This document shows, piece by piece, positions 9,544 to 31,581 of a stretch of DNA of 64,000 nucleotides. The translations under genes were made by a program, and so were the position numbers. This DNA is from Halomonas sp. (GTDB lineage: Bacteria; Pseudomonadota; Gammaproteobacteria; Pseudomonadales; Halomonadaceae). The notes under the pieces are model-generated. The model had not been told where the DNA came from. It was given only the letters and a program-made list of their open reading frames with translations, and did not search any database. Position 1 is the stretch's first letter; every line of letters starts with the position of its first letter. The stretch is from the NCBI GenBank assembly GCA_011050415.1, contig DRFS01000006.1, positions 245,539-309,538 of the forward strand, read 5' to 3'.

Positions 9544-11100
9544 CTAATCGCTAGGCTGCCGACTCGGCAGTAAGTTCGGGGCAATAGACAGGAGCTTATC
9601 GATCACTTGAGTCTCCTGGAGACGCTGGTAAGTCGCTTGAATATCCAGGTGCAGCGCATGCTCTTCCTGGTAGGCAGGCAACGCTTCTCGCAGTGATTTC
9701 CAGGCCAGTGATGTGCCAGGAGAGAAGTCTTCTCCGTCGACCAAATCGAAGGCCTGGGCAGCCAGCAGATACTCAATGGCAAGCACATAGAAAGCATTTT
9801 CGAGAGCCTGATCCAGCTTCAGAGCAGCGCTTTCACCCAAGCTTAGGTGATCCTCCTGCAGCCCCGAGGTGATAAAATTATCAGTAACAGCGGGCTGTGC
9901 CAGTCGCTTGTTATCAGCCACCAAGGAGGCCGCCGAATAGTGAGCGATCATCATGCCGGATTTAACGCCGCCTTCAGTGGTCAGGAAAGGCGGCAGCTGG
10001 TTCGCCTGGGGTGTCACTAGCCGGTAAGCACGCCGCTCGGAGATCGAACTCCATTCACAAACAGCGATGGCCAGCAGGTCGCACGCCATCGCAACCGAAG
10101 CACCGTGAGGGTTGGCTTGGGATACAATCTGGTAACTATCACCCACCGGCACCACTAACGGGTTATCGGTGGCGGAATGCAGCTCCTTCTCAATCTGCCT
10201 AGCGGCATGGTCAAACTGGTCGCGGCAGGCGCCGTGCACCTGAGGCATAGAGCGCAGGCTAAGCGCGTCCTGTAGCCGCGCCCCCTCATGGCGAGCCAAG
10301 TGGATACTGCCTTCAAGCAAACGACGCAGGTTATCCCCCGTTTGCTGAACGCCTGGGTGGCGTTTGAGAACCGTTACCTCGGCCATAAATGCCTGCAACT
10401 GACCGCCTAATGCTTCAAAGCTCATAGCACCAACAATGTCGGCCCAGGCGGCCAGCCGGGCAGTATCGTCAAGCGTCAAGCAGGCCAGCCCCGTCATCGC
10501 CGGGGTGCCATTAACCAGGCTCAGGCCATCCTTGGGCCCAAGGGTTAGCGGCAACATACCGATGGCAGCCAACGCTTGGCTGGCGGGTATTCGTTGACCG
10601 CGAAATTCAACGTCGCCGTGGCCAATCAACACCAGCCCAATATGGGCCATATGGGTGAGGTAACCCACCGAGCCGCGCGAGGGTACGATCGGCGTGACCT
10701 GCTCATTCAACAGTCTGATCAGCCCCTCCACCACGCCCGGACTAATCCCGGAGTAGCCATGGCTGTAGTTAACCACCGCGCTGCACATAATGGCTCGCAC
10801 TTGCTCCGTTCGCAGCGGGGTACCAATACCACAGGCATGGCTCATTAAGGTGTGATGGGAAAGCCGCTGCAGCTCATCGTGAGCTAGCACTACATCGCAC
10901 AGGGCACCCAAACCAGTATTAATCCCGTAATGGGGCACGCTTGAAGCGGCGATCTTCTCAACGACCTGCCGGGCGGCGCTTATCTTTTCCCACACCGGCA
11001 GCGACAGCGATAGGCGATACTGGTAACGAGCGACCTTGACCACCTCCCGCCAAGCGGGAGGTGTATTGCCGATCTCAACGCAGCGAGGCAACTCACTCAT
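9544..11100 (-). CDS. Histidine ammonia-lyase paralog lacking the MIO-forming Ala-Ser-Gly triad (candidate trimethylamine-lyase for a histidine betaine)
   Basis: HAL fold motifs [47 protein letters not shown], but [11 protein letters not shown] where canonical HutH has [14 protein letters not shown]. Likely start MSELP at 11100, overlapping the BCCT stop. Confidence 0.85.
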
Positions 11101-12685
11101 AGGCATCCTTAACCTGTGCCGTAGGAGCCTGCTCTGCTGAGGGTTTATTAGTGCCATCCATAATAAAAACCTTCACCGCAGAAGCCACGATCAACGCAAA
11201 CAGAAACAGCACGGTAAAACCGCCTGCCGCCGCCAGGAATTTAATACCATCGACACCCTGGGCGCCGCCGCCGAAGGCAACCATCACATAAGCGATAATC
11301 GCGATTGACAGCCCCCAAAGGATCTTCTGCTTACGGGGGGCCTCCTCTTCTGCGGTCATGTTTTTAGTGCAGATGGTGGCAATGGTCGATGACATTGAGT
11401 CAGCCGCCGTGGAGAAGGAGATAATCAGCGTAAAAATAGCCAGCGGGATCAGCAAGGCAGACATAGGCAAGTGCTGCAGGAAGCCCCAGAGACCTGAAAC
11501 TGCACCGTTCTCAGTCACTACACTCACCAGATCCAGGGTGCCATCCATTTGCCACTTGATTGCCGATCCACCCCAGATAGCAAACCACACGATGCCGAAC
11601 AGTGAAGGCAGTATCCAGTTAATCACCAGAAATTCCCGTAGCGTTCTGCCATAGGAAATACGCGCCAAAAAAAGGCCCATCAAAGGCGCATAGGCGATCC
11701 ATATCGACCAGTCGTACATGGTCCACCAGGTAACCAGCGCTTCACCACCAGACTCTTTGGTATCGAATGACCAGAGAAAGAAGTTATCGAACCAGTAGCC
11801 CAAACTGGTCACCGACAGACTCAGGATGTAGTTCACTGGGCCAATAATCAGCAGAATGAGCACAAAGGCGTAGAAGATGTAAGCATTGACCGATGAAAGA
11901 AAGCGGATACCCCGCTTAAGACCGGACACCGCCGAAGTAATAAAGATAGCCGAAATAACCAGCGTTAAAATCAGCCAAGTGGTAGGGCTAGAGGCAATGC
12001 CATATTCGGCTTCAATGCCAGAACTGATCAGCGCAAGACCAGCCCCTAACGACGAAGCCAGGCCCAGCGCAATGGCAAGAATCGAGATAATATCGACCAC
12101 GGCACGCACGCTAGGATTGCGCTCTTTATTGCCCAATAACGGAGCGAGTGTTGAAGAGATCGAGAAGCGCTCTTTGCGATTAAAGTGCATATAGCCAATC
12201 ATCAAACCAACAATGGAGTACATGGCGTAGGGAATAAAGCTCCAGTTATGAAAGCTTCTGGCCAATGCAAAAATCGCCGCTTCGCCACTGTTAGGTTCAA
12301 ATGACTGGTTGCCGATTTCACCATAGACATTGCCGAGATAGATGATGGGCTCATTAACTGAATAGGTCACCACCCCGGTGGCGATGCCGCCGGTCAACGC
12401 CATAGCAAAGGTGGTTGCTAACGAAAACGTTGGCTTCGCGTTCGCCCCACCCAAACGAATATTGCCTGCCTTGGAAAAAAATATAAAAGCGGTGACACCC
12501 AAGGTCGAAATGGCCAGCAGTTGATAAAGCCAACCGAAGTCAGAAAGCGAGAGATAGAACAACTGCCTGGCAACACTAACCAGTAGTTCGTTGTTAACCA
12601 AGCCAATAATAACGGCCACCATAATAATGGCGAAGGCCGGGATAAAGACGCTGCGTTTTAACTGTTTTCCGTCTGATAGTGACAT
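11093..12685 (-). CDS. BCCT (betaine/choline/carnitine) family transporter
   Basis: About 12 TMs; GNIRLGG...KPTFS...FAMA..GG.A.G, HNWSF..YA.Y, WTMYDWSIWIAYAPLMGLFLARISYGRTLREF, TAADS. Confidence 0.92.
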   Translation of the reverse strand: MSLSDGKQLKRSVFIPAFAIIMVAVIIGLVNNELLVSVARQLFYLSLSDFGWLYQLLAISTLGVTAFIFFSKAGNIRLGGANAKPTFSLATTFAMALTGGIATGVVTYSVNEPIIYLGNVYGEIGNQSFEPNSGEAAIFALARSFHNWSFIPYAMYSIVGLMIGYMHFNRKERFSISSTLAPLLGNKERNPSVRAVVDIISILAIALGLASSLGAGLALISSGIEAEYGIASSPTTWLILTLVISAIFITSAVSGLKRGIRFLSSVNAYIFYAFVLILLIIGPVNYILSLSVTSLGYWFDNFFLWSFDTKESGGEALVTWWTMYDWSIWIAYAPLMGLFLARISYGRTLREFLVINWILPSLFGIVWFAIWGGSAIKWQMDGTLDLVSVVTENGAVSGLWGFLQHLPMSALLIPLAIFTLIISFSTAADSMSSTIATICTKNMTAEEEAPRKQKILWGLSIAIIAYVMVAFGGGAQGVDGIKFLAAAGGFTVLFLFALIVASAVKVFIMDGTNKPSAEQAPTAQVKDAYE

Positions 12686-16153: not shown

Positions 16154-16867
16154 CTACTTAGAAGAGTGCGCCATGGTGCGCAATTTATAGCGGTCACCGG
16201 GATGCAGCAGATGAGCATAGCTAATTAGGCGGTCGCCTGACCAAGTGCGCCGACGAACACTCAGGCAGGGTAGCGCAGCATCGATTTCTAGCCACTCTGC
16301 TGCACCCGCTTCTGGCAGCACCGCCTCTACCACGTGCTCCATATCGGTAATCGGGCAAGCGGCAACCAACACCTCATTGGGGGTTTGGCGATTGAAGTCT
16401 GCCTCCAAATAGCCAGGTACCCAGCGTGGATTGACGAAGCGCTCTTCGAGCTGGATCGGCTGGCCATTTTCCAGGTGAATAAGAATCGAATGAAACAACC
16501 TAGTCCCGATACGTACGCCCATCCGAAGGGCGATCTCATCGTCAGCATGCAACGCTTCGCAACTCACCACACGATTAGCGTATTCGTGGCCACGGCTGCG
16601 TACCTCATCGGCGATATTATTAATTTCGGCCAATGGCGACTCAGAGCGGCGATCCGTCACAAAGGTGCCGATCCCCGATTGGCGCACCAGATAGCCTTCC
16701 TGCACTAGGTCGCGAATGGCTTTGTTGGCCGTCATCCTGCTGACACCGAAGGTAACCGCAAGCTGCTCCTCAGGCGGGATCTTATGATCGACGGGAAAAT
16801 GACCTGTTTGGATATTATCCAGCAAGTACTGTTTGATCTGTTGATACCGGGGCGGTTGGCGTCCCAC
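16154..16867 (-). CDS. hutC: Histidine utilization repressor (GntR/UTRA), copy 1
   Basis: PRYQQIK, GVSRMTANKA, RQSGIGTFV, NIADEVRSRGH, QLEERFVNP, EHVVEA, RRTWS. GTG start. Confidence 0.9.
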   Translation of the reverse strand: MGRQPPRYQQIKQYLLDNIQTGHFPVDHKIPPEEQLAVTFGVSRMTANKAIRDLVQEGYLVRQSGIGTFVTDRRSESPLAEINNIADEVRSRGHEYANRVVSCEALHADDEIALRMGVRIGTRLFHSILIHLENGQPIQLEERFVNPRWVPGYLEADFNRQTPNEVLVAACPITDMEHVVEAVLPEAGAAEWLEIDAALPCLSVRRRTWSGDRLISYAHLLHPGDRYKLRTMAHSSK

Positions 16868-16922: not shown

Positions 16923-17519
16923 TCAAGCCCGTGGAAACAGGTCGATCCTAATCAGGCGCGTTGCAGGCAGCGTCTCAAATGTCATTATGTGACAGCTCTC
17001 GGTCGCTAACTCGTCATCAGCGCTGGGCCAGCGCCAAACATCGCCACTCTTAAGGAGCAGCGGCGGCTCACCGGCCAGCCACGCCTGCCCGTCAACGGCT
17101 AAGATAAGTGTCTCAGCGCTCGGGGCTTGCCTTAGCGACTCCCCAGACGTTAGCCAACGAACAGAAGCCTGCCAGTTTGCTGAATTGTACATTAAATTCA
17201 GCGCCCGGCTCGGCCCTTCAGGCAACAAGCAGTTCACCGCTGTTTCACCATCGAACAGGTAGCTTTCCCGTGGTGCCAAAACAGCACGCTGATCAGGCAA
17301 AACAAGTGTGACCGGATGCTCACCTATCACCGTAAAGTGACGCCTGACCCCAGCAATAATCGAGAATGGCCCCTCCCGCTCAAGTTCAGCCACCGAAACC
17401 CGCCAGCCTGGCGATTCCCCATCGCCCTTCTGGCGCGCCACTTCGCGTGTTACGCCACCGCCATTTTGCCAAGCGATGGGCAAAAGATCGGTAAAGCGTA
17501 ACCTCTCAGGCAGCTTCAT
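16923..17519 (-). CDS. hutD: HutD family protein
   Basis: WQNGGGVTREVA, WRVSVAE....GPFS...GVRR, ALNLM. Confidence 0.88.
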   Translation of the reverse strand: MKLPERLRFTDLLPIAWQNGGGVTREVARQKGDGESPGWRVSVAELEREGPFSIIAGVRRHFTVIGEHPVTLVLPDQRAVLAPRESYLFDGETAVNCLLPEGPSRALNLMYNSANWQASVRWLTSGESLRQAPSAETLILAVDGQAWLAGEPPLLLKSGDVWRWPSADDELATESCHIMTFETLPATRLIRIDLFPRA

Positions 17520-17532
17520 TGATGGCTCCTCA

Positions 17533-18504
17533 TCAGGATGCAGCGGCCTTGCGGTAGCTCATCGAGGCATCAATGCGGCCCAAGATGTAGTCACCCGCGG
17601 CTACTGGCGGATAGTGAGCTTCTGCTGCTGAGACACCAAGGTCGGCAGGATCAACGAGAGCCGTATAGTCGGGGTCATAGAAGGTCGCGATGGAGTAGCG
17701 TTCCCGGCCACTGGTATTGATGACCCGGTGCAGCGTCGAGCGAAAACGATCATTAGACCATCGCGCTAATAGATCGCCGACATTAACCACCAGCGAGCCC
17801 TCAATAAAAGGCGCATCAATCCAGCGCTCGCTACCCAGCTCGCGCACCTGCAAACCACCCACCGCATCCTGGTAGAGTAGCGTCACACAGCCATAATCGG
17901 TATGCGGGGCAACGCCAAATTGGTCCATCGGCCGATCGTCAGACTGAACGGGGTAATAGACCGCCTGAGTGCGTTGTAACGGCTTGGTATATTTAGCTGC
18001 AAAGAATTCAGGGTCGATCTCTAAGCTCATCGCAATAGCACGCAGCAGATCCGCGCCACAGCGGCCTACCTCCACAAAGTAGCGATCCATTGCTTGCTGG
18101 AATTCGGGCATAAAGTCCGGCCACTGGTTCGGTCCCCGTAGCGCTTCACCCGCCAGCACGCTCGGGTCATCCTCGGCCAGATCCAACCCAAAGCCATAGA
18201 ACTCCTTCTCATCGGGCCGGGTGGCCTGATACATCGTCGCCCCACCACGGCGATGAAAACCCCGGTGGCGTTTATTGACCGCCACCTGCGCCTTGCGCTC
18301 AAGCGGCTCAGCAAAGAAGCGCTGGGCGACCTCCATGGCATCGTCTATCACCGCCTGGGGAAGACCATGATTGATAATGTAGAAGAAGCCCACCTGGGTG
18401 CAGGCGTTATGTATCGCCTCACCAGCCCGAGCGAGAGCTTCAGCGTCACCCTCCCGTACGCCCTGCATATCCACAACAGGAATGTTCGTAGCTGAGTTAC
18501 TCAT
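17533..18504 (-). CDS. Fe(II)/2-oxoglutarate dioxygenase, isopenicillin N synthase-like (DIOX_N + 2OG-FeII_Oxy)
   Basis: IPVVDM, ACTQVGFFYIINHG, PNQWP, HTDYG (HxD), VVNVGDLL.RWSND.FRSTLHRV, RYS. Confidence 0.92.
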   Translation of the reverse strand: MSNSATNIPVVDMQGVREGDAEALARAGEAIHNACTQVGFFYIINHGLPQAVIDDAMEVAQRFFAEPLERKAQVAVNKRHRGFHRRGGATMYQATRPDEKEFYGFGLDLAEDDPSVLAGEALRGPNQWPDFMPEFQQAMDRYFVEVGRCGADLLRAIAMSLEIDPEFFAAKYTKPLQRTQAVYYPVQSDDRPMDQFGVAPHTDYGCVTLLYQDAVGGLQVRELGSERWIDAPFIEGSLVVNVGDLLARWSNDRFRSTLHRVINTSGRERYSIATFYDPDYTALVDPADLGVSAAEAHYPPVAAGDYILGRIDASMSYRKAAAS

Positions 18505-18599
18505 CTTCGCAGTCTCCTAACGATAAGAACGTACTTGCGCACATTCTCTTAGCGGTTTTGTTTTCAATAATGGCCGTGAAGGCGTTGCAATAACGATTC

Positions 18600-18615
18600 T
18601 GCAATGCGCGTGCCA
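18600..18615 (-). promoter_or_regulatory. Sigma-54 (-24/-12) promoter for the dioxygenase-hutD-hutC unit
   Basis: Minus strand TGGCAC-GCGCA-TTGCA, an exact match to TGGCAC-N5-TTGCW, about 95 bp upstream of the ATG at 18504. Confidence 0.75.
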
Positions 18616-18645
18616 AAAGCCATCAAAAACACTCAACACTCAATA

Positions 18646-18655
18646 AGTATATACA
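18646..18655. promoter_or_regulatory. HutC operator candidate upstream of the IPNS-like dioxygenase
   Basis: AGTATATACA, one mismatch to TGTATATACA, 30 bp from the sigma-54 site. Confidence 0.55.
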
Positions 18656-18845: not shown

Positions 18846-18855
18846 TGTATATACA
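18846..18855. promoter_or_regulatory. HutC operator candidate upstream of hutH
   Basis: Perfect TGTATATACA about 75 bp before the hutH ATG. Confidence 0.8.
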
Positions 18856-18929: not shown

Positions 18930-20462
18930 ATGACATCGATACAACGACTCTCACCAGGCCAACTAACGCTTGCGACACTGCGCGAGCTTTTTGAGGGCAG
19001 CCCTACTATCGAGCTCGACGACGAGAGCCGCGCCAGGGTCGATCGTGCCGAAGCTACGGTTAGCGCCATTCTCGACAGCGGCCGTACCGTTTACGGTATT
19101 AATACCGGCTTTGGCGTGCTGGCCCAAACCTCCATACCACGCGATTCGCTGACCGAGCTGCAGCGTAACTTGGTGCTGTCGCACAGCACCGGGGTCGGTG
19201 ACAATCTGGATGACGCCACCGTGGGGATGATTCTGGCGCTCAAAGCGACGTCGCTGGCCCGTGGCCACTCCGGCGTCCGCTGGCTGATTATTGAAAGCCT
19301 ATTGGCGCTTTACAATGCGCGGGTCTATCCCTGCATTCCTGCCAAGGGCTCGGTTGGCGCCTCGGGGGATCTAGCGCCACTGGCGCATATGGCGGCCACC
19401 CTGCTCGGCGAAGGCCGCATGCGTCATCAAGGACGAGAGATGCCCGCCAGTGAGGGGCTGGCCCTGGCCGGTATCGAGCCGCTTACGCTGGCACCCAAGG
19501 AGGGGCTGGCACTGATCAACGGCACCCAGGTATCCACCGCTCTGGCGCTACGCGGGCTGTTCGCCACCGAGAAACTATTCACCGCAGCCGTGGTGGCAGG
19601 CAGTCTGTCGGTGGATGCATTGAAGGGCTCAGATACCCCGTTTGACGAGCGCATTCAGGCCGTTCGCGGCCACCCCGGTCAGCGTGATGTCGCCGCTTTC
19701 TACCGCGAGCTGCTAGCGGGCAGCCGGGTGCGCGAATCCCACCGCGACTGCCCGCGGGTTCAGGATCCCTACTCACTGCGCTGCCAGCCCCAGGTGATGG
19801 GCGCCTGTCTGGACCACTTGCGCTTTGCGGCGGGCGTATTTCTGCGTGAGGCCAACGCCGTTTCCGATAACCCGCTGGTGTTCGATAATGGTGATGTGCT
19901 TTCTGGCGGTAACTTCCATGCGGAGCCGGTAGCGATGGCCGCCGATGTACTGGCGCTGGTGATCTCAGAAATCGGCGCCTTGTCGGAGCGCCGCATCGCC
20001 CAATTGGTCGATCCAGCGCTATCCGGCTTGCCCGCCTTTCTAGTGACGGAGAGCGGGCTCAACTCCGGCTTTATGATCGCCCAGGTCAGCGCCGCCGCCC
20101 TGGCGTCCGAGAACAAAACTCTGGCCCATCCGGCTTCGGTAGATAGCTTACCGACCTCTGCCAATCAAGAAGACCACGTCTCCATGGCCACCTTCGCCGC
20201 AAGGCGCTTGGCCGATATGGCGTTTAACTCCAGCGCCGTGGTCGCCATTGAGCTGCTGGCAGCGGCCCAAGGGGTCGAATTTCATCGCCCCATGACCTCC
20301 TCAGTCGCCCTCGAGGAAGCGTTAGCGACCATACGCCGCGACGTGGCACGTTATGAGCGGGACCGCTACTTCGCCCCCGACCTGGTAGCCGCCCAGCGCT
20401 TCGTCAGCGACGCTGTCTTCGAGACGCTACTGCCCCGTTCACGGCTCTACGCTGAAGGTTGA
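18930..20462 (+). CDS. hutH: Histidine ammonia-lyase (canonical, MIO-forming)
   Basis: [36 protein letters not shown] (ASG intact), [39 protein letters not shown]. Confidence 0.97.
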
Positions 20463-20524
20463 TATGAAACGACACTGCGCCTGCCGCTAACCACCAACGC
20501 GAAGCCGAACGAGCGAGATTGATC

Positions 20525-21913
20525 ATGATTTCCAGCCACACAGCCGACCATCTCTTTCTTAAAACACTAAAAGATATGCTTGGCGACAGCGTGCTGTTGG
20601 GCGAAGAGATTCCTGCGTCCTGCTTCAGCGATTGGACAGGCCATGCTGCCTGCCGACCGCTGGCACTGGTACGCCCAGCTACCACTGAAGAGGTTGCCAG
20701 CCTGCTACGACTGTGCAATGAACACCGCCGCCCGGTGGTGCCCCAGGGAGGAATGACCGGCTTGGCGGGCGCGGCGGTGCCCAGTGCCGATAGCATCGCA
20801 ATATCGCTTGGTCGACTAACCGGTGTCGAGAGCGTCGATGGCGATGCCGCTACCCTGACGGTGCGCGCGGGCACCACACTACAAACCGTCCAGGATGCGG
20901 CTGAAGAGGCAGGTTTTCGCTACCCGGTCGATTTTGGCGCCCGGGGAACGTGCCAAATCGGCGGTAACATCGCGACCAATGCCGGTGGCCATGGGGTGAT
21001 TCGTCACGGCATGACCCGCGACCAGGTGCTCGGCCTGGAGGTGGTACTCGCGGATGGCCGGATTCTCGACTTGATGAACGGCATGATCAAGAACAATACC
21101 GGCTACGACCTTAAGCACTGCTTTATCGGCGCCGAAGGCACCCTGGGCATTATCACCCGCGCCGTGCTGCGTCTGGCGCCTCCCAAGGGTGAAACCCATA
21201 CGTTTTTGTGCGGGCTGCCCAACTATCCGGCGGCTGTTGCGTTACTCCACCGGTTACGCGGTGCTGGGCTGGCGCTAGAGGCATTTGAAGTGATGTGGCA
21301 GGACTTTTACACCATGAGCTGTGGCTGGCGAGACGGCCAGTCACCGCTGCACACAAGCCACCCTATTTACCTGCTGTGCGAGGCAGAGGGCGCAGCCAGC
21401 CATCTGGAGGCTGCCCTGGAAAGCGCGCTGGCAAGCGGCGAGGTGGAAGATGCGGTACTGGCTGGCAGCAGTACATAAGCCCGCGAATTATGGGCTATCC
21501 GTGAGGCGACCGGCGAATTTCCGCTCAAGCTGGCACCCATCAACTTTGATATCAGCCTGCCGGTTGCCACGATCGGCGCCTTTGTCGAAGACGCCAGCAA
21601 AATGCTCACTCAGCGCTGGCCGGACATCCGCATTGTCAATTTTGGCCATATCGGCGACTGCAATCTACACCTAACCGTGGATGGCCAGTCCCTGGCCGAG
21701 GATACCGCCGAGACTCGCCATGCTATCGAAGCGGAGGTCTATCGCCTGGTCGGTGACTATAGCGGTTCGATCTCTGCCGAGCACGGCATTGGCCTGCTCA
21801 AGCGCGATTTCTTACACCACAGTGTCCACCCCGAAGCGCTGGACGTTATGCGCTCGCTCAAACATACCCTGGACCCTAACGGCATCCTCAATCCGGGCAA
21901 GCTATTCGGTTAA
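20525..21913 (+). pseudogene. FAD-linked oxidoreductase (D-2-hydroxyacid dehydrogenase / GlcD-like) interrupted by an in-frame TAA at 21476-21478
   Basis: ORFs 20519-21478 and 21602-21913 share a frame. Reading through TAA gives ...AGSST*ARELWAIREATGEFPLKLAPINFDISLPV...FGHIGDCNLH...SISAEHGIG...DPNGILNPGK, about 463 aa, with PQGGMTGL, GGNIATNAGG, NTGYDL, GAEGTLGIIT. Confidence 0.85.
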
Positions 21914-22010
21914 GTCGCTCACCTTAGCCGCCCTTATAGGCGGGCCGGTACGCACCCAAACTGTGCAGGCTGTAGTTAGCTATTTCACGCCTAAATCTGC
22001 AAAACCATTA

Positions 22011-22020
22011 TGTATATACA
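22011..22020. promoter_or_regulatory. HutC operator candidate upstream of the amino acid ABC operon
   Basis: Perfect TGTATATACA, 14 bp upstream of a sigma-54 site. Confidence 0.8.
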
Positions 22021-22033
22021 GGTAAGTACTTTT

Positions 22034-22049
22034 TGGCACACCGTTTGCT
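22034..22049 (+). promoter_or_regulatory. Sigma-54 (-24/-12) promoter for the ABC operon
   Basis: TGGCAC-ACCGT-TTGCT, exact consensus spacing. Confidence 0.78.
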
Positions 22050-22182: not shown

Positions 22183-23016
22183 ATGAACAAATCCACGCTG
22201 CTTAACCGGTCACTCTCCCAGCTAACTTTAGGCCTTGGCCTCTGCTTAGCGATCTCCAACGCCTCTGCAGACCTGCTTGATGAGGTTAAAGAGCGGGGTG
22301 TACTCAATGTTGGCACTGAGTTTCACTTCGCGCCCTTCGCTTATTTAGATGCGGGCCAGCAGAGTGGTTTAAACCTTGAGCTTATGGAGCGTGTTGGTGA
22401 CGAATTAGGGATCACGATTAACTGGATCGACTTACCCTGGCCCAGCGTACTCCCCGGCCTTGAGGCGGGTAATTACGACTTTGTTGCAGGCCCCGCGATG
22501 ATTACCCAAGAGCGCAAACTACGCTACAACTTCACCTTGCCTATCGCCGATGCCACTGTCGCTATCCTCAAGCGCGCTGACGACGACTCTATTCAAACCC
22601 CCGAAGATATTTCTGGCAAAGCTGCCGGGGGCGGCCGCGGTACCGCACAGCTTGAACAGCTAAAGGCATTTGCCGCTGAGCTGCCGGATCCGCCGACTAT
22701 TACCGAGTATGTGGACTACAGCCAAACCTACGCCGACCTGGCCGCTGGGCGTATCGATGCTGTCGCCAACTCGCTACCCAATATTGCTTATACGGCGACT
22801 CAGCGCCCGATGTTTGAAGTTGTCCTTCCCCCCTTTGGCCAACCTGCCTACTTCGGCTATATGGCGCGTAACGATGAAGAATCCGCATCACTGGTTGATG
22901 CCATCAACGAGGTGCTTCTATACATGCACGAAGATGGCAGCCTCTCCGAGCTGCAAACCAAGTGGTTCGGCGCGCCGATGGATGTTCCCAGCGAAGATTT
23001 TGAGCCCGCAATCTAA
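22183..23016 (+). CDS. Polar amino acid ABC transporter substrate-binding protein
   Basis: Signal peptide; L..VKERGVL.VG.E.hFAPF, WPSVLPGLEAGNYDFV, ITQERK, DLAAGRIDAV, GSLSELQTKWFG. Confidence 0.92.
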   Translation: MNKSTLLNRSLSQLTLGLGLCLAISNASADLLDEVKERGVLNVGTEFHFAPFAYLDAGQQSGLNLELMERVGDELGITINWIDLPWPSVLPGLEAGNYDFVAGPAMITQERKLRYNFTLPIADATVAILKRADDDSIQTPEDISGKAAGGGRGTAQLEQLKAFAAELPDPPTITEYVDYSQTYADLAAGRIDAVANSLPNIAYTATQRPMFEVVLPPFGQPAYFGYMARNDEESASLVDAINEVLLYMHEDGSLSELQTKWFGAPMDVPSEDFEPAI

Positions 23017-23093: not shown

Positions 23094-23753
23094 ATGTTCG
23101 ACTGGCCGACGCTTCTTTTTAGCCTGCCACTGCTGGGTAAGGCACTCCTGATCACGCTCCAGACGTCACTGTTAGGCAATGCCATTGGCTTTGTTATCGG
23201 CACCCTGATTGCCAGCATGCAGTTGGCCAAAATGCCTTTGCTGCGCCGTCTCGGCGGCAGCTATATCTTTATCTTTCGAGGGGTACCACTGCTCGTCCAG
23301 CTACTGGTTATCTACTACTTGGCCCCCATGTTCGGGCTACCCAACCTATCCCCCATGGTGGCCGCGGTGATGGCACTCTCGCTCTGTTCAGGCGCTTATA
23401 TCGCCGAAATATTACGCGGCGGGCTATTGGCGATCCCCTCTGGTCAGCGTGAAGCGGCCCACTTACTCGGTATGAGTCGCCCCGCTATTTTGCTACGCAT
23501 CGAGCTGCCCCAGGCGGTTCAAAGCACCCTCCCTTCACTGGTAAACGAGCTGGTACTGCTGATTAAGGCCTCGGCGTTGGTGTCAGTCGTCGGCCTGGCG
23601 GACCTTACCCGGGTGGCTCAAAACCTGGCCTCTTCAGACTACTTATTTTTCCAGCACTACCTGGTACTGGCAGGGATCTACTGCCTGATCAACATACCGT
23701 TGACCATGTTCGGGCGCCGACTTGAGCGTCACCTAGAGAGGAGTCTGGCGTGA
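23094..23753 (+). CDS. Amino acid ABC transporter permease
   Basis: FRGVPLLVQL, AYIAEILRGG..AIPSGQREAA..LGM, LIKASALVSVVG. Confidence 0.93.
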   Translation: MFDWPTLLFSLPLLGKALLITLQTSLLGNAIGFVIGTLIASMQLAKMPLLRRLGGSYIFIFRGVPLLVQLLVIYYLAPMFGLPNLSPMVAAVMALSLCSGAYIAEILRGGLLAIPSGQREAAHLLGMSRPAILLRIELPQAVQSTLPSLVNELVLLIKASALVSVVGLADLTRVAQNLASSDYLFFQHYLVLAGIYCLINIPLTMFGRRLERHLERSLA

Positions 23754-24412
23754 TTTTCGATCTATCAATTATTACCGCCAATGCCGACGCCATCTGGAGC
23801 GCTTTTTTAGTCACCATTTATACCTGGCTGGTGGGCAGCGTATTGGGGTTGGTAACGGGACTATTGATTGCTGCGCTGATGCTCTTTGGCGGTCGGCCAC
23901 TGCAGCTCATATTGAGAGTGTTTATTGAGCTGGTACGCGGCACCCCGTTTTTGGTGATCCTGTTTCTGGTCTACTACGGCGGCCCGTCATTCGGTCTACG
24001 TCTCGGCGCGATTACCGCTGGGGTGCTCTGCATCGCTTTCTACAGCAGCGTCTATTTCGCGGAGATTTTTCGTAGCGGCTTCGCCGCCGTCCCCCGCGGG
24101 CAACTGGAAGCTGGCGAGTGCCTGGGACTAGGTCGCCTGCAACTTATGTGGCGCGTACAGCTGCCCCAAATGCTGGTACTGATCCTGCCAGCCATCGTCA
24201 ATATGCTGACAATTCTATGCAAAGAGACCGCTGTCCTGTCGATTATCACCGTCCCTGAGCTAACCGCGGTGCTCACCGGTATTGGTACCCGCACCTTCAC
24301 TTTTATTGAAACGCTATTGGTTCTCTGCATCGCCTACCTACTGCTTATCGAAATCACCTCGCGGGTGGGCAGGTGGCTTGAGCACCGCGTCGGCACCTAC
24401 TTACAGCGCTGA
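23750..24412 (+). CDS. Amino acid ABC transporter permease
   Basis: [50 protein letters not shown] start overlapping the upstream stop. Confidence 0.93.
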
Positions 24413-24425
24413 ACAGGAGCTAGCT

Positions 24426-25310
24426 ATGCCGCTTTCCCTATCTTCGTCCACATCTACCCCTGCTGCGGCTTTGGTCGAAGCTACGCAAAAAGGGGGTGAT
24501 AAGGCGTCCCCCATTATCCATCTCTCCGCCGTCGGCAAGCGTTTCGGCGAGCATCAAGTACTCACTGATATCAACCTTGATGTGCATCACTCGGAGGTCG
24601 TCTGCCTGATTGGCCCATCGGGGTCGGGTAAAAGTACGCTGCTGCGCAGCATGGCCTTTCTTGAGGAGTATGACGAAGGGGAGATCCATATCGAGGGGCG
24701 CCTACTCGGCTGGGAAATCGATGACCGGGGGCGCCGCCAGCACGCCGGACGCAACCGCCTCAATCAGGCCCGGCGCAACCTGGGCATCGTCTTTCAGCAG
24801 TTCAACCTGTGGCCACATATGACAGCGCTGGGCAATGTCACCGAGGCCCTGGTAAGAGTGCGTAGGCTAAAGCGCAGCGAAGCTGAAAAGCGCGCCATGG
24901 AGGTGCTCGACAAGGTTGGCCTGGCCGAGAAGGCCAAGGAGTACCCAGCGCGACTTTCCGGCGGCCAACAGCAGCGCGTGGCCATTGCCCGGGCACTGGC
25001 CATGGAACCCAAGATTATGCTCTTCGATGAGCCTACCTCAGCACTCGACCCTGAACTGGTGGGCGAGGTATTGGCGGTGATGAAGCAGCTCGCTCTTGAA
25101 GGCATGACCATGGTGGTAGTGACCCACGAGATGGGCTTTGCCGCTCAAGTCGCTGATACCGTTGTGTTCCTTGATCAAGGCAGCATCGTCACCCGTGGCA
25201 CGCCCAGTGAAGTATTCCGCGACACTCAGCACCCTCGCCTTCGTCAGTTTTTACAGAATTACCTGGATCGCAACGCCTTCTGGAATACCACTCCGGAGCT
25301 GGAAAACTAA
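24426..25310 (+). CDS. Amino acid ABC transporter ATP-binding protein
   Basis: [59 protein letters not shown]. Start set at ATG 24426 behind a CAGGAG RBS. Confidence 0.94.
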
Positions 25311-26461
25311 TGCTGCCTATCGACCCCACTCCCCTGGCACGCCGCGAAGTGCGCGAGCTTGAAAGCTACAATGCTGGGCTCTCCAGTGAACAGGTAAGCA
25401 AGCGCTTTGGCATCTCAAAGATTGCCAAGCTAGGCAGCAATGAGAACCCCTATGGCCCCTCTCCCCTGGTAGCCACCGCTATCTCAAACGCCATTAGCGA
25501 TAGCGGCCTTTATCCCGACGCCTCCTGTGGGCTATTACGCGATTTGCTGGCGGTGCGCCTTGGGGTTGCGCCCGAACAGCTGGTGTTTGGTAATGGCTCG
25601 GAAGATCTGATTGCGATTTTGTGCCGGGTGTTTCTCGACCACGGCGATAACTTAGTCACCGTCACCCCCGCCTTCGGTCTGCACACCCTATACCCCCACT
25701 CACTGGGGGCGAAGATTCGCGCGGTGCCCATGCTGGAGGGAGGCAGTTTTGACATTGACGGGCTGATTGAGGCGCTTAGTGAGCCGCCACGTATGCTGAT
25801 GTTCTCATCCCCCTCCAATCCGGTTGGTAGCGCACTATCGGCAAGCCAGTTAAAGCAGTTGCTTGAGGTGCTAACCCCCGCCACTCTATTAGTCTTCGAT
25901 GAGGCCTATTATGAGTACGCTCAGGGCAGCCCCGGCTATCCGGATGTGCTGGCTCGGCTATCCCTACAGCAGACGCCATGGATCGTTTTACGCACCTTCT
26001 CAAAAGCCTATGCGCTGGCCGGTTTACGTGTGGGCTATGGCATTGCCAGCAGCCCAGCGCTGGCCGATCTTATCGATCGCCTCCGCACGCCGTTTAACGT
26101 TAACCGCCTTGCTCAAGTAGCTGCACTAGCAGCGCTGCAGGATGAGGCCCACCTCAAGGCTGGGCTTGAAGCGACCATTCGCGAACGCGAGCGGGTTGCC
26201 AAGGCGCTTCACGAGATGCACCTGACGGTAGTGCCTTCTCTGACTAATTTCCTGTTTTTCAAAACGGATCAAGCATCCGATAGCGTGCATGAAGCACTGC
26301 TGAGCCACGGCGTAATTGTTAAACCCTGGCGCGAGCCAGGCTATCGCCACTGGCTGCGCGTCTCAATCGGCAGCCGCGAGCAGAATGATCAATTTCTTAC
26401 CGCGCTTTCGGAAACTCTTCAGCCCGCGCCAGCACCCTTTGCTCACGACGATACTCCCTGA
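25310..26461 (+). CDS. hisC: Histidinol-phosphate/aromatic aminotransferase (HisC family, PLP)
   Basis: KLGSNENPYGPSP, GNGSED, SPSNPVG, DEAYYEY, RTFSKAYALAGLRVGY. Translationally coupled (TAATG) to the ABC ATPase; its role may be catabolic. Confidence 0.85.
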   Translation: MLPIDPTPLARREVRELESYNAGLSSEQVSKRFGISKIAKLGSNENPYGPSPLVATAISNAISDSGLYPDASCGLLRDLLAVRLGVAPEQLVFGNGSEDLIAILCRVFLDHGDNLVTVTPAFGLHTLYPHSLGAKIRAVPMLEGGSFDIDGLIEALSEPPRMLMFSSPSNPVGSALSASQLKQLLEVLTPATLLVFDEAYYEYAQGSPGYPDVLARLSLQQTPWIVLRTFSKAYALAGLRVGYGIASSPALADLIDRLRTPFNVNRLAQVAALAALQDEAHLKAGLEATIRERERVAKALHEMHLTVVPSLTNFLFFKTDQASDSVHEALLSHGVIVKPWREPGYRHWLRVSIGSREQNDQFLTALSETLQPAPAPFAHDDTP

Positions 26462-26500: not shown

Positions 26501-27316
26501 ATGGCAACTCCCAACCCCAATGTCACTGTAAATGATGCGGAGATCGAGGCTTTTCAACGCGAAGGCGCCGTGGTACTACGTGGCCTTTTTAACGATTGGA
26601 TGGAGCCACTACGTGAAGGAGTTGATACGCTGATTGCATCGCCCAGCCCTCTGGAGCGCTCCTATCAGCCCAGTGATGGCTCGGCACCGTTCTTTCAGGA
26701 CCTATGCAACTGGCAGCGCATTGAGCCTTTTTCACGCTTTGTGATGGAATCTTCTATTGCGGAGCTAGCTTGCAAACTAATGGGCTCACGACAGGCACAG
26801 TTCTTTCACGACCACGTACTTGTCAAAGAGCCCGGCTCCTCGCAAGTGACCCCCTGGCATCAGGATCAGCCCTATTATTGTGTTGAGAGTACGCAGTGCA
26901 TTAGTTTTTGGATCCCACTAGATCCCGTGGCATGTGAGACTTCCCTAAAATGTATTGCAGGGTCACATCACTGGAACAAACTTCACCGCCCCAAGCGCTT
27001 TGACGGCAGTGATCTTTATCAAGGAGATACGCGTGAAGAGCTACCGGATATTGATGTCGACCCTTCTCAGTACCGCATCCTGCAATGGGCTTTAGAACCT
27101 GGCGACGCCGTCGCTTTTGATTTCCGCACCGTTCATGGTGCTTCTGCCAACACCTCCAGCCATCGTCGCAGGGTGTTCTCCGCGCGTTGGTTAGGTGACA
27201 ATGCCCGCTTTGTTGACCGGGGTGGCAAAGGGTCTCCACCCTTTGCCCATCTCACCTTACAAAATGGCGATCTATTAACAGGGCCTGAGTTCCCCATTGT
27301 CTATCAGCACCCCTAG
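26501..27316 (+). CDS. Phytanoyl-CoA dioxygenase (PhyH)-family Fe(II)/2OG dioxygenase
   Basis: FQREGAVVLRGLF, KEPG....TPWHQD (HxD), WIPLD, GSHHW, GDAVAF.FRTVHGA..N....RRRVFS.RW. Confidence 0.9.
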   Translation: MATPNPNVTVNDAEIEAFQREGAVVLRGLFNDWMEPLREGVDTLIASPSPLERSYQPSDGSAPFFQDLCNWQRIEPFSRFVMESSIAELACKLMGSRQAQFFHDHVLVKEPGSSQVTPWHQDQPYYCVESTQCISFWIPLDPVACETSLKCIAGSHHWNKLHRPKRFDGSDLYQGDTREELPDIDVDPSQYRILQWALEPGDAVAFDFRTVHGASANTSSHRRRVFSARWLGDNARFVDRGGKGSPPFAHLTLQNGDLLTGPEFPIVYQHP

Positions 27317-27352: not shown

Positions 27353-28108
27353 ATGAAGAAAACCGATACCGATAGCGTCACCGCACCAAAAGCACTCTAT
27401 TTACAGGCCAAGCAGTTTGTACTGGAGCGCACCGCCTCGGGCTTCTGGAAGCCTGGCGATATGATTCCATCTGAAAATCAACTCGTTAACGAACTCGGCA
27501 TGTCACGCATGACGATTAATCGAGCACTACGGGAGCTAACCAGCGAGGGCTACTTAGAGCGTACCAGCGGCGTAGGTACCTTTATTGCTGAGCGCAAACC
27601 ACACTCCAACTTGCTGCAAATAGCCAATATTGCCGATGAGATCATCTCCCGGGGCCACCGTTACCACTGTGAAGTACTCGAACTCGGTCGTGTTGCGGCG
27701 CCGTTCGCTATTGCCTCAGCACTTGAGCTCACCACCGGCAGCTCGGTTTATCACCTGCGCTGTGTTCACTATGAGGAAGATCTCGCCGTCCAGCTCGAGG
27801 ATCGTTACGTTTCGCCCACCATGGCGCCCGATTTTATTCACCAGCGCTTTGATGACACGCTGCAACCTTCGCGCTACCTACTCAATACTATCCCGGTAGA
27901 CGAAATAGAGCACATCGTCGACGCGCTACTGCCCTCGGAAGAAGATGCTAAAGCGCTGGATATCGACACAAACGAGCCCTGTTTAGCACTGATGCGCCGC
28001 ACTTGGAGTGCTTCTCGGGTGGTTACTTACGTTAAGTTTCTGCACCCCTCCATGCGCTATCGGCTGGGAAGCCGCTACTCCGTTGATGCCACCTCCCATG
28101 CGGGCTGA
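27353..28108 (+). CDS. hutC: Histidine utilization repressor (GntR/UTRA), copy 2
   Basis: LYLQAKQ, IPSENQLV.ELGMSRMTINRALREL, GVGTFIAE, NIADEI.SRGH, QLEDRYV, EHIVDA, RRTWS. Confidence 0.88.
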   Translation: MKKTDTDSVTAPKALYLQAKQFVLERTASGFWKPGDMIPSENQLVNELGMSRMTINRALRELTSEGYLERTSGVGTFIAERKPHSNLLQIANIADEIISRGHRYHCEVLELGRVAAPFAIASALELTTGSSVYHLRCVHYEEDLAVQLEDRYVSPTMAPDFIHQRFDDTLQPSRYLLNTIPVDEIEHIVDALLPSEEDAKALDIDTNEPCLALMRRTWSASRVVTYVKFLHPSMRYRLGSRYSVDATSHAG

Positions 28109-28266: not shown

Positions 28267-29160
28267 ATGAACCGCAATGTCATTCTTACCTGTGCCGTGA
28301 CTGGTGCGGGTGATACCACCGCTAAGAATCCTAATGTCCCGATTACCCCCAAGGCTATCGCAGCTTCCTGCATTGAAGCTGCCCACGCCGGGGCCAGCAT
28401 CGCGCATATCCATGTTCGCGATCCGCAAACCGGCGGCATTAGCCACTCGACTGAGCACTTTCGCGAAGTGATGGAACGTGTCCGCGAAGCGGATGTGGAT
28501 ATCGTGATGAACATCACCGCTGGCGGTGGCGGCGACTGGATACCCGATGCCGCAGACCCTACCCGAGGTGGCCCAGGCACAGACATTCAAACACCAGCAG
28601 AACGCCACGCGCCGGTCGGCGAACTCCTTCCCGAGCTTTGTACGCTGGACTGCGGCAGCCTCAACTTTGGCGATATGGTCTACGTGAACCCAGCGGACTG
28701 GCTGCGCGAGCACGCCCGCCTGGTGCAAGCCGCAGGCGTTAAGCCAGAACTGGAGTGCTTTGACCTGGGCCACGTCTGGTTTGCCCGCCAGCTTCAGCAA
28801 GAGGGCCTTATCGACGGAGACCCACTCTATCAACTCTGCCTGGGCATTCCCTGGGGCGCAGAAGCCGATACCGAAACCATGCTGGCGATGCGCAACAAAT
28901 TACCTGCCAACGCTAACTGGGCGGCCTTCGGCATTGGTCGTCATCAAATGCCTATGGTTGCCCAGGCGGTGCTGCTCGGCGGTCACGCCCGTGTTGGCTT
29001 GGAAGATAACCTGTTTTTAGAGAAAGGCGTGTTGGCCAACAACGGCCAACTGGTCGAAAAAGCCTCAACCATTATCGAGAATCTCGGCGCCCGGGTAATG
29101 ACCCCCGCTGAAACCCGCGCCCATCTCAACCTGCGTAACCCGGCAGGAGGTGACGCATGA
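28267..29160 (+). CDS. cdhC: 3-keto-5-aminohexanoate cleavage (BKACE) family protein; 3-dehydrocarnitine cleavage enzyme by context
   Basis: [55 protein letters not shown]; sits ahead of carnitine dehydrogenase. Confidence 0.88.
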
Positions 29161-30110
29161 GCCGCTTAGCCGTGATTGGTACTGGCGTGATTGGCAACGG
29201 CTGGATTGCCCGCGCCCTCGCCCAAGGCTGGGATGTGGTCGCCTTCGACCCCGCACCTGAAGCGCCAGCACGCACCCGCACGTTTATCGAAAACGCCTGG
29301 CCCTCGTTAACCCAGCTCGGCCTAGCGTCCGATGCGAGCCCTGAGCGACTATCGTTTGTGGCCACCATAGATGAGGCGGTGAGCGACGCCGATCTGGTTC
29401 AGGAGAACGTGCCTGAGCGCCTTGAGCTTAAACAACAGATCTTAGCCACCATTGATGCCGCGGCTGCACCGAATATCATCATTGGCTCGTCTACCTCAGG
29501 CTTTAAGCCCACCGACCTGCAGCAGCAGTGCCAACAATCACCTGGGCGTGTGATCGTCGCTCATCCCTTCAACCCAGTCTATTTACTACCGCTGGTGGAG
29601 CTTGTGGGTGGTGAAGCCACCCAACCCGCACAGATTGCCACCGCCCAGGCGCTTTACCAGTCATTAGCCATGCGCCCCTTGGTCGTTCGGCGTGAAATTG
29701 AGGGTCATATCGCCGACCGCTTGATGGAAGCGTTATGGCGGGAAGCCCTGCATTTGGTCAATGATGGCGTGGCGACTACTGAAGAGATCGACGCGGCGGT
29801 GGTTTATGGCTGCGGCTTACGCTGGCCATTAATGGGCACCTTCTTAACCTTCCACTTAGCGGGCGGCGAGCCTGGCATGCGCCATATGCTGGAACAGTTT
29901 GGCCCGGCGTTAAAACTTCCCTGGACCAAATTGGAAGCCCCGGAACTCACCGACGAGTTGATCGACAAAGTGGTCGAGGGGTGTGAGCATCAAGCAGCGG
30001 GGCGTTCAGTGGCAACGCTCGACCGGCGCCGAGATGACTTTTTAGTCGAGCTGCTCGAGGTGGTGCAAAAATATTGGCCGGAAGCCGAAGGCCTTAAGGG
30101 GCGCATCTAA
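29157..30110 (+). CDS. lcdH: L-carnitine 3-dehydrogenase
   Basis: [99 protein letters not shown]. Confidence 0.9.
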
Positions 30111-30565
30111 TGATTATCCATGAAACCCAGGTGGCTCCGGAGTGGGTCGACTACAACGGACACATGAACGACGCGGAGTACGCCCGCGTCTTCTCTCAGG
30201 CCTGTGATGCCCTTATTGAACATATCGGGCTGGATGACGCAGGCCGTGAACAACACGGCTACACGATTTATACGCTGGAAACCCACCTCTGCTATCGCCG
30301 GGAGGCGCACCAAGGGCAGTTGTTAAGCGTGGATTTAACCCTGCTCGATAGCGATGCAAAACGTCTGCACGTGTTTTTCGCCATGTTGGATGAGGAGAGC
30401 AACCTCCTGGCAACCAGCGAACAGATGCTTATGGGTATTGAAAAAGCGTCTGGCCGCCCAGGCCCCTTCCCTGAAGCAATTGCTAGCGCGGTGGCAGCGC
30501 TACCCCAGGTTGATAGCGATGCATGGCCTGAGCTTGCTGGCCGAACCATCGGTATACGGCGCTAG
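30110..30565 (+). CDS. cdhB: Hotdog-fold thioesterase (betainyl-CoA thioesterase by context)
   Basis: WVDYNGHMNDAEY, YTLETHLCY..E, D.KRLHVF, ATSEQMLM. Confidence 0.8.
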   Translation: MIIHETQVAPEWVDYNGHMNDAEYARVFSQACDALIEHIGLDDAGREQHGYTIYTLETHLCYRREAHQGQLLSVDLTLLDSDAKRLHVFFAMLDEESNLLATSEQMLMGIEKASGRPGPFPEAIASAVAALPQVDSDAWPELAGRTIGIRR

Positions 30566-30612
30566 GCGGCACACCCCAGTAGTCCACCTGCGATGCCCTG
30601 CCGAGGCCACCA

Positions 30613-31581
30613 CTAATCGGTTGGGGCACGCACCGCCCGAGGCGAGTAACCATAATAGCCGCGAAACGCACGTGCAAAGCTTGATGACGAACTAAATCCA
30701 CAGGCAATGCCCACCGCCAATACGGCTAAATCAGTCTCTGCCAGCAATCGCCTGGCTCGCTTAAGGCGTAGCTGTAAGTACCACTGGCGTGGTGTTGCCG
30801 ATAACTCCTGCTCAAACAAACGCTGTAACTGGCGGACCGACACATTGATACGACTCGCCACCTCTTCAAGCGTAAGCGGCTCTTCAAGGTTCTGTTCCAT
30901 CAACGCCACCGCCTCAATCACGCGCCGATTGTGGCTACCCAAACGTTTGACCAGTGCCATACGCTGCTGGTCGCTGCGGGTGCGAATACGGTCATGAATA
31001 AGCTGCTCAGAGACATCAATGGCCAGCTTATCCCCATGTCGCCGAGCGATCACTTCCAGCGCCATATCCATCGCCGCCGCCCCGCCCGCGCAGGAGAAGC
31101 GCCGCTCACCTAACTCATAAAGCTCATCGGTAGTATCAATGCCCGGAAAGCGCTCACGAAAGGCGGGCAGACTCTCCCAGTGCAGCGCCACCCGCTCGTG
31201 CTTTAATAACCCGGTGGCGGCGAGCAGAAATGCCCCGGTATCAATGCCTCCCAAACAGCAGCCTGCCTGATCTAACTGATGCAGCCAGGCCATTAACGGC
31301 CGGGTAAGATGCGCCTCTGGGGTGAAGCCGCTGCATACCGCCAGCGAGGGCATATGGTGAAGATCCGCCGTTGCGTGATCAGCCATTAGCGTCATACCGT
31401 TGGACGCCGTCACTGGCTCGCCATCCGCGCTAATCAAGATCCAGTCAAACAGAGGGCGATTAGCAATACGATTTGCAATCCGCAACGGTTCAACCGCCGC
31501 GAAAAACGCCATCATGGAAAACTGCGGCAACAGTAAAAACCCCACCATTTCTGGCAAAGGGCCCTGGTAACTAAGACGCAT
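30613..31581 (-). CDS. GlxA-family AraC transcriptional regulator (CdhR/GbdR-like)
   Basis: FSMMAFFAAVEPLRIANR, GGIDTGAF.LA, HWE, CAGGAAAMDM, MEQNLEEPL, RQLQRLF, CGFSS.SSF.RAFR. Confidence 0.9.
   Translation of the reverse strand: MRLSYQGPLPEMVGFLLLPQFSMMAFFAAVEPLRIANRIANRPLFDWILISADGEPVTASNGMTLMADHATADLHHMPSLAVCSGFTPEAHLTRPLMAWLHQLDQAGCCLGGIDTGAFLLAATGLLKHERVALHWESLPAFRERFPGIDTTDELYELGERRFSCAGGAAAMDMALEVIARRHGDKLAIDVSEQLIHDRIRTRSDQQRMALVKRLGSHNRRVIEAVALMEQNLEEPLTLEEVASRINVSVRQLQRLFEQELSATPRQWYLQLRLKRARRLLAETDLAVLAVGIACGFSSSSSFARAFRGYYGYSPRAVRAPTD

Follow-up and report, generated by a model that had tools for sequence, protein, structure and literature searches.

The described proteins that best match DIOX, a predicted 2-oxoglutarate (2OG) oxygenase encoded in a 64,000-nucleotide stretch of a Halomonas sp. 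genome (contig DRFS01000006.1; this whole stretch is called the window below), are PaIPNS (PA4191, 6JYV; E = 1.8e-52) and the reconstructed Anc357 (9OVH; E = 1.4e-55). Both match DIOX with a Foldseek TM of ~0.82 at 33-36% identity, and the His-Asp-His triad and the 2OG-binding Arg/Ser are common to all three. In vitro, PaIPNS gave only 2OG turnover that was mostly uncoupled, and its substrate is not known (PMC12329707); a function cannot usefully be transferred from a reconstructed ancestor or from a protein that itself lacks a known function. Thymine 7-hydroxylase (5C3Q, 30% identity) and ethylene-forming enzyme (5V2Y, 23% identity) share the fold and cofactor site of DIOX, yet neither thymine nor L-arginine is supported as substrate by the gene context. 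At the level of pathways, a parallel is the CsiD/LhgO glutarate route of E. coli and Pseudomonas putida, where C2 of a carboxylic acid is hydroxylated by a 2OG oxygenase before a flavin dehydrogenase forms the 2-oxo acid. This resembles the logic proposed below for DIOX and its dehydrogenase partner FADox in principle only: CsiD and LhgO come from families unrelated to those of DIOX and FADox, and their route runs through a hydroxy acid of the opposite configuration (L-2-hydroxyglutarate). Coote and Hassall (1973) reportedly found that Pseudomonas testosteroni grows on imidazolylpropionate and on imidazolyl-lactate, degrading both through imidazolylpyruvate to histidine; the lactate dehydrogenase of the route, as described by them in 1969 and 1973 for Pseudomonas (Comamonas) testosteroni and P. 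acidovorans, was reportedly NADP-linked. Our proposed route likewise passes through imidazolylpyruvate and histidine into the Hut pathway and differs in using an FAD/FMN enzyme; we treat the older work as a lead and not as a test. We know of no genes ever assigned to that imidazole-acid route, and a search of the available literature found no paper on genes for the degradation of imidazole propionate or imidazole-lactate. The textbook histidine utilization (Hut) pathway has, to our knowledge, no oxygenase.

We tentatively propose that DIOX is the oxidative entry enzyme of a conserved module that salvages imidazole acids as an accessory to the Hut regulon, hydroxylating imported imidazole propionate, and hold this to be a serious possibility that stops short of a likelihood. 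Reading of the sequence gives an open reading frame (17533..18504, minus strand) of 323 residues with an ATG start, served by a putative ribosome-binding site.

18518-18513, minus strand: ribosome-binding site AGGAGA, 8 nt ahead of the DIOX ATG.

The protein carries the DIOX_N (PF14226, 2.5e-30) and 2OG-FeII_Oxy (PF03171, 8e-28) domains, both exceeding their Pfam cut-offs. The first-pass annotation, made from the letters alone, had reported intact HxD...H and RxS motifs, and a 60-sequence family alignment bears this out: the iron ligands H201, D203 and H259 and the 2OG-binding R269 are invariant, with S271 at least 90% conserved. An AlphaFold2 model (pLDDT 95.2) matches 9ovh, 6jyv, 5c3q and 5v2y with a Foldseek probability of 1.00, and has the double-stranded beta-helix fold that defines 2OG oxygenases. 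Motifs and predicted fold thus confirm DIOX as a genuine member of the Fe(II)/2OG oxygenase superfamily. The gene is under strong purifying selection, as judged by comparison with relatives (dN/dS ~0.045), and no NCBIfam model matches the protein. The database name 'IPNS family' is a superfamily label only. A true isopenicillin N synthase was considered and rejected, since IPNS scores 84 bits (E 8e-23) where the PaIPNS-like group reaches 192 bits; among the annotated proteins of the window there are no beta-lactam genes near DIOX. We likewise rejected an ethylene-forming enzyme or arginine hydroxylase, given an identity of only 23%; in PaIPNS-type proteins the L-Arg site is different, and no pyrroline-5-carboxylate (P5C) is formed (PMC12329707). 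The same genome encodes a second DIOX_N-type oxygenase (contig C6, 189348-190265), 36% identical to DIOX and ~73 kb away from it.

DIOX belongs to a sharply bounded clade. Orthologs in Pseudomonas and Burkholderiaceae are ~70% identical to it and, in a library clustered at 50% identity, the matches have identities of 93% and 69%, next of 51%, and beyond that of ~45%. This gap (69% to 51% to ~45%) and a set of clade-specific residues, at positions 92, 180, 183, 274 and 315 of DIOX, separate the clade from PaIPNS and Anc357. The clade has Tyr at position 92, where an acidic residue (Asp or Glu) is frequent across the wider family. The sister clade (51% identity) is found in an operon (locus L090, 2642-7996) with an AstE/AspA-type deacylase, a 2-Hacid_dh protein, two proteins without a Pfam match and an aminotransferase whose gene overlaps that of the oxygenase by 4 nt; SBP_bac_3 transport genes lie alongside. 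The D-2-hydroxyacid dehydrogenase of this operon is of the NAD-type 2-Hacid_dh family and non-homologous to FADox. We regard the operon as an analogous module for another compound, in which the same chemical logic recurs with a dehydrogenase from a different family. No other single observation argues as strongly that the enzymes of this branch produce a 2-hydroxy acid, or act on one, ahead of its oxidation and transamination. Further out, the family representative P0130 sits amid unrelated ABC and hydantoinase genes, and the contigs of P0124, P0126, P0127 and P0128 are too short to show neighbours.

The main evidence for a module comes from the genes that accompany DIOX. In the window these are as follows.

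16154..16867, minus strand: hutC repressor, the last gene of its putative unit (TIGR02018, 287 bits against a cut-off of 220).
16923..17519, minus strand: hutD, 13 nt downstream of DIOX (PF05962, 2.6e-28).
18930..20462, plus strand: hutH, histidine ammonia-lyase, divergent from DIOX (TIGR01225, 683 bits against 539).
20519..21916, plus strand: FADox, a GlcD-like FAD-linked 2-hydroxyacid dehydrogenase with one in-frame TAA at 21476-21478.
22183..23016, plus strand: SBP_bac_3 substrate-binding protein with an AVANS motif, lacking the Asp that binds an alpha-ammonium group.
23094-23753 and 23750-24412, plus strand: two ABC permeases.
24282..25310, plus strand: ABC ATPase, its true start probably downstream of 24282.
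25310..26461, plus strand: HisC-like aminotransferase (TIGR01141, 296.5 bits against 276.55).
26501..27316, plus strand: PhyH-family 2OG oxygenase unrelated to DIOX, between the aminotransferase and GntR2.
27353..28108, plus strand: GntR2, a second HutC-family GntR/UTRA regulator (TIGR02018, 281.7 bits against 220), which is the module's own regulator.

We surveyed 80 orthologous loci (66-93% identity) from Halomonadaceae, Pseudomonas and Burkholderiaceae, scoring neighbours by tblastn with the window proteins. Near-universal partners of DIOX are the substrate-binding protein and both permeases (76/80 each), the ATPase (75/80), FADox (74/80) and GntR2 (73/80). An FMN-dependent L-2-hydroxyacid dehydrogenase (25 loci), a histidase scoring above the hutH cut-off (22) and the HisC-like aminotransferase (22) are optional, and the PhyH oxygenase, present in four of the 80 modules (Halomonas-type and Caballeronia), is an accessory of some. 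The core in all lineages is DIOX, FADox, the importer and the regulator. Coupling to FADox is also seen at other scales: in Burkholderiaceae (Paraburkholderia), DIOX and FADox share an operon with a 4-nt overlap, and among 201 sampled Halomonadaceae genomes the seven that bear a DIOX ortholog (at least 79% identity) are exactly those with a FADox ortholog (at least 71% identity). Three Pseudomonas genomes hold DIOX apart from the module, with an operator, and carry a FADox ortholog elsewhere in the genome. Salinicola peritrichatus has two DIOX copies, one (87%, L014) in a full module with hutD-hutC, the other (84%, L015) beside FMN dehydrogenase and sulfotransferase genes and without an operator.

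Linkage to hut genes had been claimed for this locus, and it recurs elsewhere: a histidase is adjacent in 22 loci, the Pandoraea module adjoins hutH, hutU and hutD, and 73 of the 80 loci have a HutC-family regulator. In Halomonadaceae, Pseudomonas and Pandoraea, the module itself includes a histidase that scores above the hutH cut-off. Because the linkage is found in other genomes, the objection that it might be confined to this one falls away. The recurrence of histidase, HutC-family regulators and operators places DIOX in an extended Hut regulon and agrees with the first-pass view that it probably acts on a histidine-derived imidazole compound. DIOX, hutD and hutC are co-directional, as had been stated, with gaps of 13 nt and 55 nt; in the related locus L003, DIOX and hutD overlap by 4 nt. 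The further claim that DIOX heads a hutD-hutC transcription unit fits the gene order of this strain, where such a unit is putative, and fails as a general rule: hutD follows DIOX in Halomonadaceae only (6 loci), and the hutD-hutC linkage is a local arrangement confined to that family.

Regulatory elements of the window add to this picture; two sigma-54 sites and three predicted operators of the HutC type are as follows.

18600..18615, minus strand: sigma-54 -24/-12 consensus TGGCACGCGCATTGCA (TGGCAC-N5-TTGCA) upstream of DIOX, a perfect match.
18646..18655: HutC-type operator AGTATATACA, proximal to DIOX, 30 bp upstream of the sigma-54 site and matching 9/10 positions of TGTATATACA.
18846..18855: HutC-type operator TGTATATACA, proximal to the divergent hutH.
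22011..22020: HutC-type operator ahead of the ABC operon.
22034..22049, plus strand: second sigma-54 site, preceding the binding-protein gene.

Both the perfect sigma-54 site and the HutC-like box that the first-pass annotation placed upstream of DIOX are thus present. The HutC operator consensus is TGTA-N2-TACA, which in the hutU promoter of Pseudomonas stands next to a sigma-54 site (PMC12977541), and it is their match to this consensus that predicts the GTATATAC boxes to be operators of the HutC regulon. Boxes with at most one mismatch occur five times in the window against 1.0 expected, a count attained in none of 100 shuffles; these five are its only boxes, and hutC has no operator of its own among them. 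A proximal GTATATAC box precedes DIOX in most of 86 loci from the three families, and paired boxes in the divergent promoter region recur in Halomonadaceae, Pseudomonas and Burkholderiaceae. The sigma-54 pattern, of which the 64 kb hold two perfect copies where 0.18 would be expected, is distributed differently. The site before DIOX is shared with a single close relative (L011, Vreelandella sedimenti) and was not found in five other Halomonadaceae loci or in the Pseudomonas or Burkholderiaceae loci, so that we reject it as a conserved feature of the gene; the sigma-54 promoter of the binding-protein gene is kept in 31 loci (Halomonadaceae and Pseudomonas modules), ~70-200 nt before the gene. 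The DIOX promoter is like that of Pseudomonas hutU in setting TGTA-N2-TACA beside a -24/-12 site, and unlike it in preceding a putative oxygenase-hutD-hutC unit and in having a sigma-54 element limited to this strain and one relative. Scans for terminators and sigma-70 promoters returned matches at chance level only, with no convincing terminator in the DIOX-hutD-hutC unit.

Several features narrow the likely substrate. GntR2 and hutC both pass the HutC model, the lyase passes that of hutH and the aminotransferase that of hisC, and for this reason the compound is very probably histidine-derived. Imidazole propionate is deamino-histidine, the product of anaerobic urocanate reduction. In GlnBP and HisJ, D157 and D161, respectively, hold the alpha-ammonium group of the ligand, and an Arg binds its carboxylate. 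The binding protein of the module retains this Arg and has Asn-Ser at the position of the alpha-ammonium Asp, invariantly in 84 orthologs. Together with Tyr92 and the HutC-, hutH- and hisC-type partners, the predicted binding site points to a de-aminated imidazole acid. As the L-lactate enzyme, the histidase and the aminotransferase are optional against a universal core, the core nutrient should be the substrate of DIOX itself and not imidazole-lactate, and imidazole propionate is the simplest reading. According to PMC12772324, which cites Schlesinger and Magasanik (1965), imidazole propionate is a gratuitous inducer of hut genes, which makes it plausible that a HutC paralog senses it.

The observations above show that the gene is real, with its motifs and fold, its promoter elements and a conserved set of partner genes; for the scheme that follows we infer the substrate, the position hydroxylated, the order of steps and the repressor that binds. 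The SBP_bac_3 ABC importer would bring in a carboxylic acid that derives from histidine and has no alpha-amino group, with imidazole propionate the likeliest candidate, and DIOX would hydroxylate this acid at C2 to D-imidazole-lactate. FADox would oxidise this to imidazole-pyruvate, with the FMN enzyme, where present, doing the same for external L-imidazole-lactate. The HisC-like aminotransferase could then convert imidazole-pyruvate to L-histidine, from which HutH would make urocanate for the normal Hut pathway. Expression of the module would be held by HutC-family repressors at the GTATATAC operators and, in this strain, the predicted sigma-54 promoter would drive DIOX and also transcribe hutD and hutC.

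Several considerations weigh against this scheme. No sequence feature identifies imidazole propionate, and the assignment rests wholly on gene context; no substrate is known for any member of the clade, or for 6JYV or 9OVH. SBP_bac_3 proteins usually bind amino acids, and we know of no case in which a DIOX_N-type enzyme hydroxylates C2 of a free carboxylic acid. In Halomonadaceae, moreover, DIOX appears to be grouped in a transcription unit with regulators and not with FADox. A further difficulty is the state of the dehydrogenases in this strain, where FADox carries its in-frame TAA and the FMN dehydrogenase is missing, yet DIOX is intact. Apart from the TAA, the window FADox is 72% identical to an intact 462-aa ortholog (that of L003), and the stop reflects a nonsense mutation of recent date or else a fault in the assembly. 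The FMN dehydrogenase gene lies between hutH and FADox in close relatives (L010, L011, L013 and L014) and is replaced here by a 56-bp gap at 20463-20518; no ortholog of the module type was found in this genome, in which the best matches are 41% and 39% identical. With FADox broken and DIOX intact, either another dehydrogenase is needed here or DIOX is independent of FADox. The damage may be very recent, the stop may be an assembly error, or DIOX may have no need of the dehydrogenase.

Of the alternatives to hydroxylation of imidazole propionate, the one that fares best keeps DIOX in the module and lets it act on another imported non-amino carboxylate, akin to histidine or to a different amino acid, or at another step (on a 2-hydroxy or 2-oxo acid), with a substrate that cannot be named from sequence. 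The context shows that DIOX is coupled to a 2-hydroxyacid dehydrogenase and an importer, and not the identity of a side chain, 58 of the 80 loci are without an adjacent true histidase, and the nearest structures have no known function, all of which leaves room for such a compound. Set against this are the HutC-family regulators and HutC-type operators of nearly all loci, the hutH-passing histidase inside the module in three lineages and the HisC-like aminotransferase; we consider another substrate or step somewhat unlikely.

A second alternative retains both module and imidazole propionate and changes the chemistry: DIOX would desaturate its substrate, or hydroxylate C3 with subsequent dehydration, to give urocanate directly, the dehydrogenases and aminotransferase forming a parallel branch for imported D- and L-imidazole-lactate. 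Some 2OG oxygenases are known to catalyse desaturation. Such an enzyme would account for a DIOX that is intact and under selection here despite a broken FADox and an absent FMN dehydrogenase, for its company with hutD-hutC and not FADox in Halomonadaceae, and for the three Pseudomonas genomes in which it has left the module and retained an operator. It sits poorly with the strict co-occurrence of DIOX and FADox across genomes, with their 4-nt translational coupling in Burkholderiaceae and with a sister clade tied once more to a D-2-hydroxyacid dehydrogenase and an aminotransferase. The minimal Burkholderiaceae module would not need FADox at all, unless D-imidazole-lactate is itself a nutrient, and on balance we find direct formation of urocanate improbable.

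The first-pass annotation had favoured an oxidative demethylase or hydroxylase of N-tau- or N-pi-methylhistidine, methyl-urocanate or a similar compound, releasing formaldehyde and histidine or urocanate. Its Hut linkage is real, and the methyl-oxidising thymine 7-hydroxylase is among the best structural matches (~30% identity), though no closer to DIOX than enzymes of unrelated or no known function. We find no specific support for demethylation of a methyl-histidine or methyl-imidazole, and the partners conflict with it: the D- and L-2-hydroxyacid dehydrogenases and the aminotransferase would be left without a role once histidine had been formed, none of the 84 orthologs of the binding protein has the Asp for an alpha-ammonium group, and no formaldehyde-handling gene was seen in the module. 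A demethylase is accordingly very improbable. Least probable of all, at a very slight chance, is a DIOX with no part in carbon flow, a passenger or a modifier of a signal (a HutC/HutD ligand) inserted before hutD-hutC, as its grouping with two regulatory genes in Halomonadaceae and the mostly uncoupled 2OG turnover of PaIPNS in vitro (PMC12329707) might suggest, since its association with importer, FADox and regulator spans three families independently of hutD-hutC and the gene is under strong purifying selection.

Returning to the preferred reading, in which DIOX hydroxylates imidazole propionate, the fold itself is that of an ordinary 2OG oxygenase; what is new is an uncharacterised, well-bounded clade in an undescribed feeder module of Hut, which Halomonas-type bacteria, Pseudomonas and Paraburkholderia all tie to their HutC regulon. 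We advance with due reserve, as something that may well be wrong, the view that this clade is the long-missing imidazole propionate oxygenase, opening the only known aerobic degradation route for this compound with a dedicated importer and a sensing HutC paralog. If so, an orphan activity described some fifty years ago would gain its genes, and they would include the first gene and enzyme known to break down a compound of microbial origin that has been associated with type 2 diabetes and atherosclerosis, making an enzyme that removes a disease-associated gut metabolite available for study. Even with a different substrate, the module would constitute a clean, testable accessory feeder pathway to histidine catabolism.

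Other gene sets surround the module. Many Paraburkholderia loci (as in L060, 880-5740) carry, back-to-back with the module, an ABC importer, a lyase and another HutC-family regulator; we rejected this lyase as a genuine hutH (472 against the cut-off of 539) and class it as a histidase paralog, and the set is a candidate second feeder module to Hut. In the window, the hutU operon (9544-12685, minus strand) includes genes for a BCCT betaine-type transporter and for a histidase paralog (494 against the hutH cut-off of 539). A preprint reports a histidine betaine trimethylammonia-lyase in Shewanella woodyi (10.1101/2025.08.13.670108), and the transporter and paralog may represent a hercynine route. 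Directly after the module, at 28267-31581, lies a carnitine-type catabolic trio of BKACE, 3-hydroxyacyl-CoA dehydrogenase and thioesterase genes, together with a convergent AraC-type regulator.

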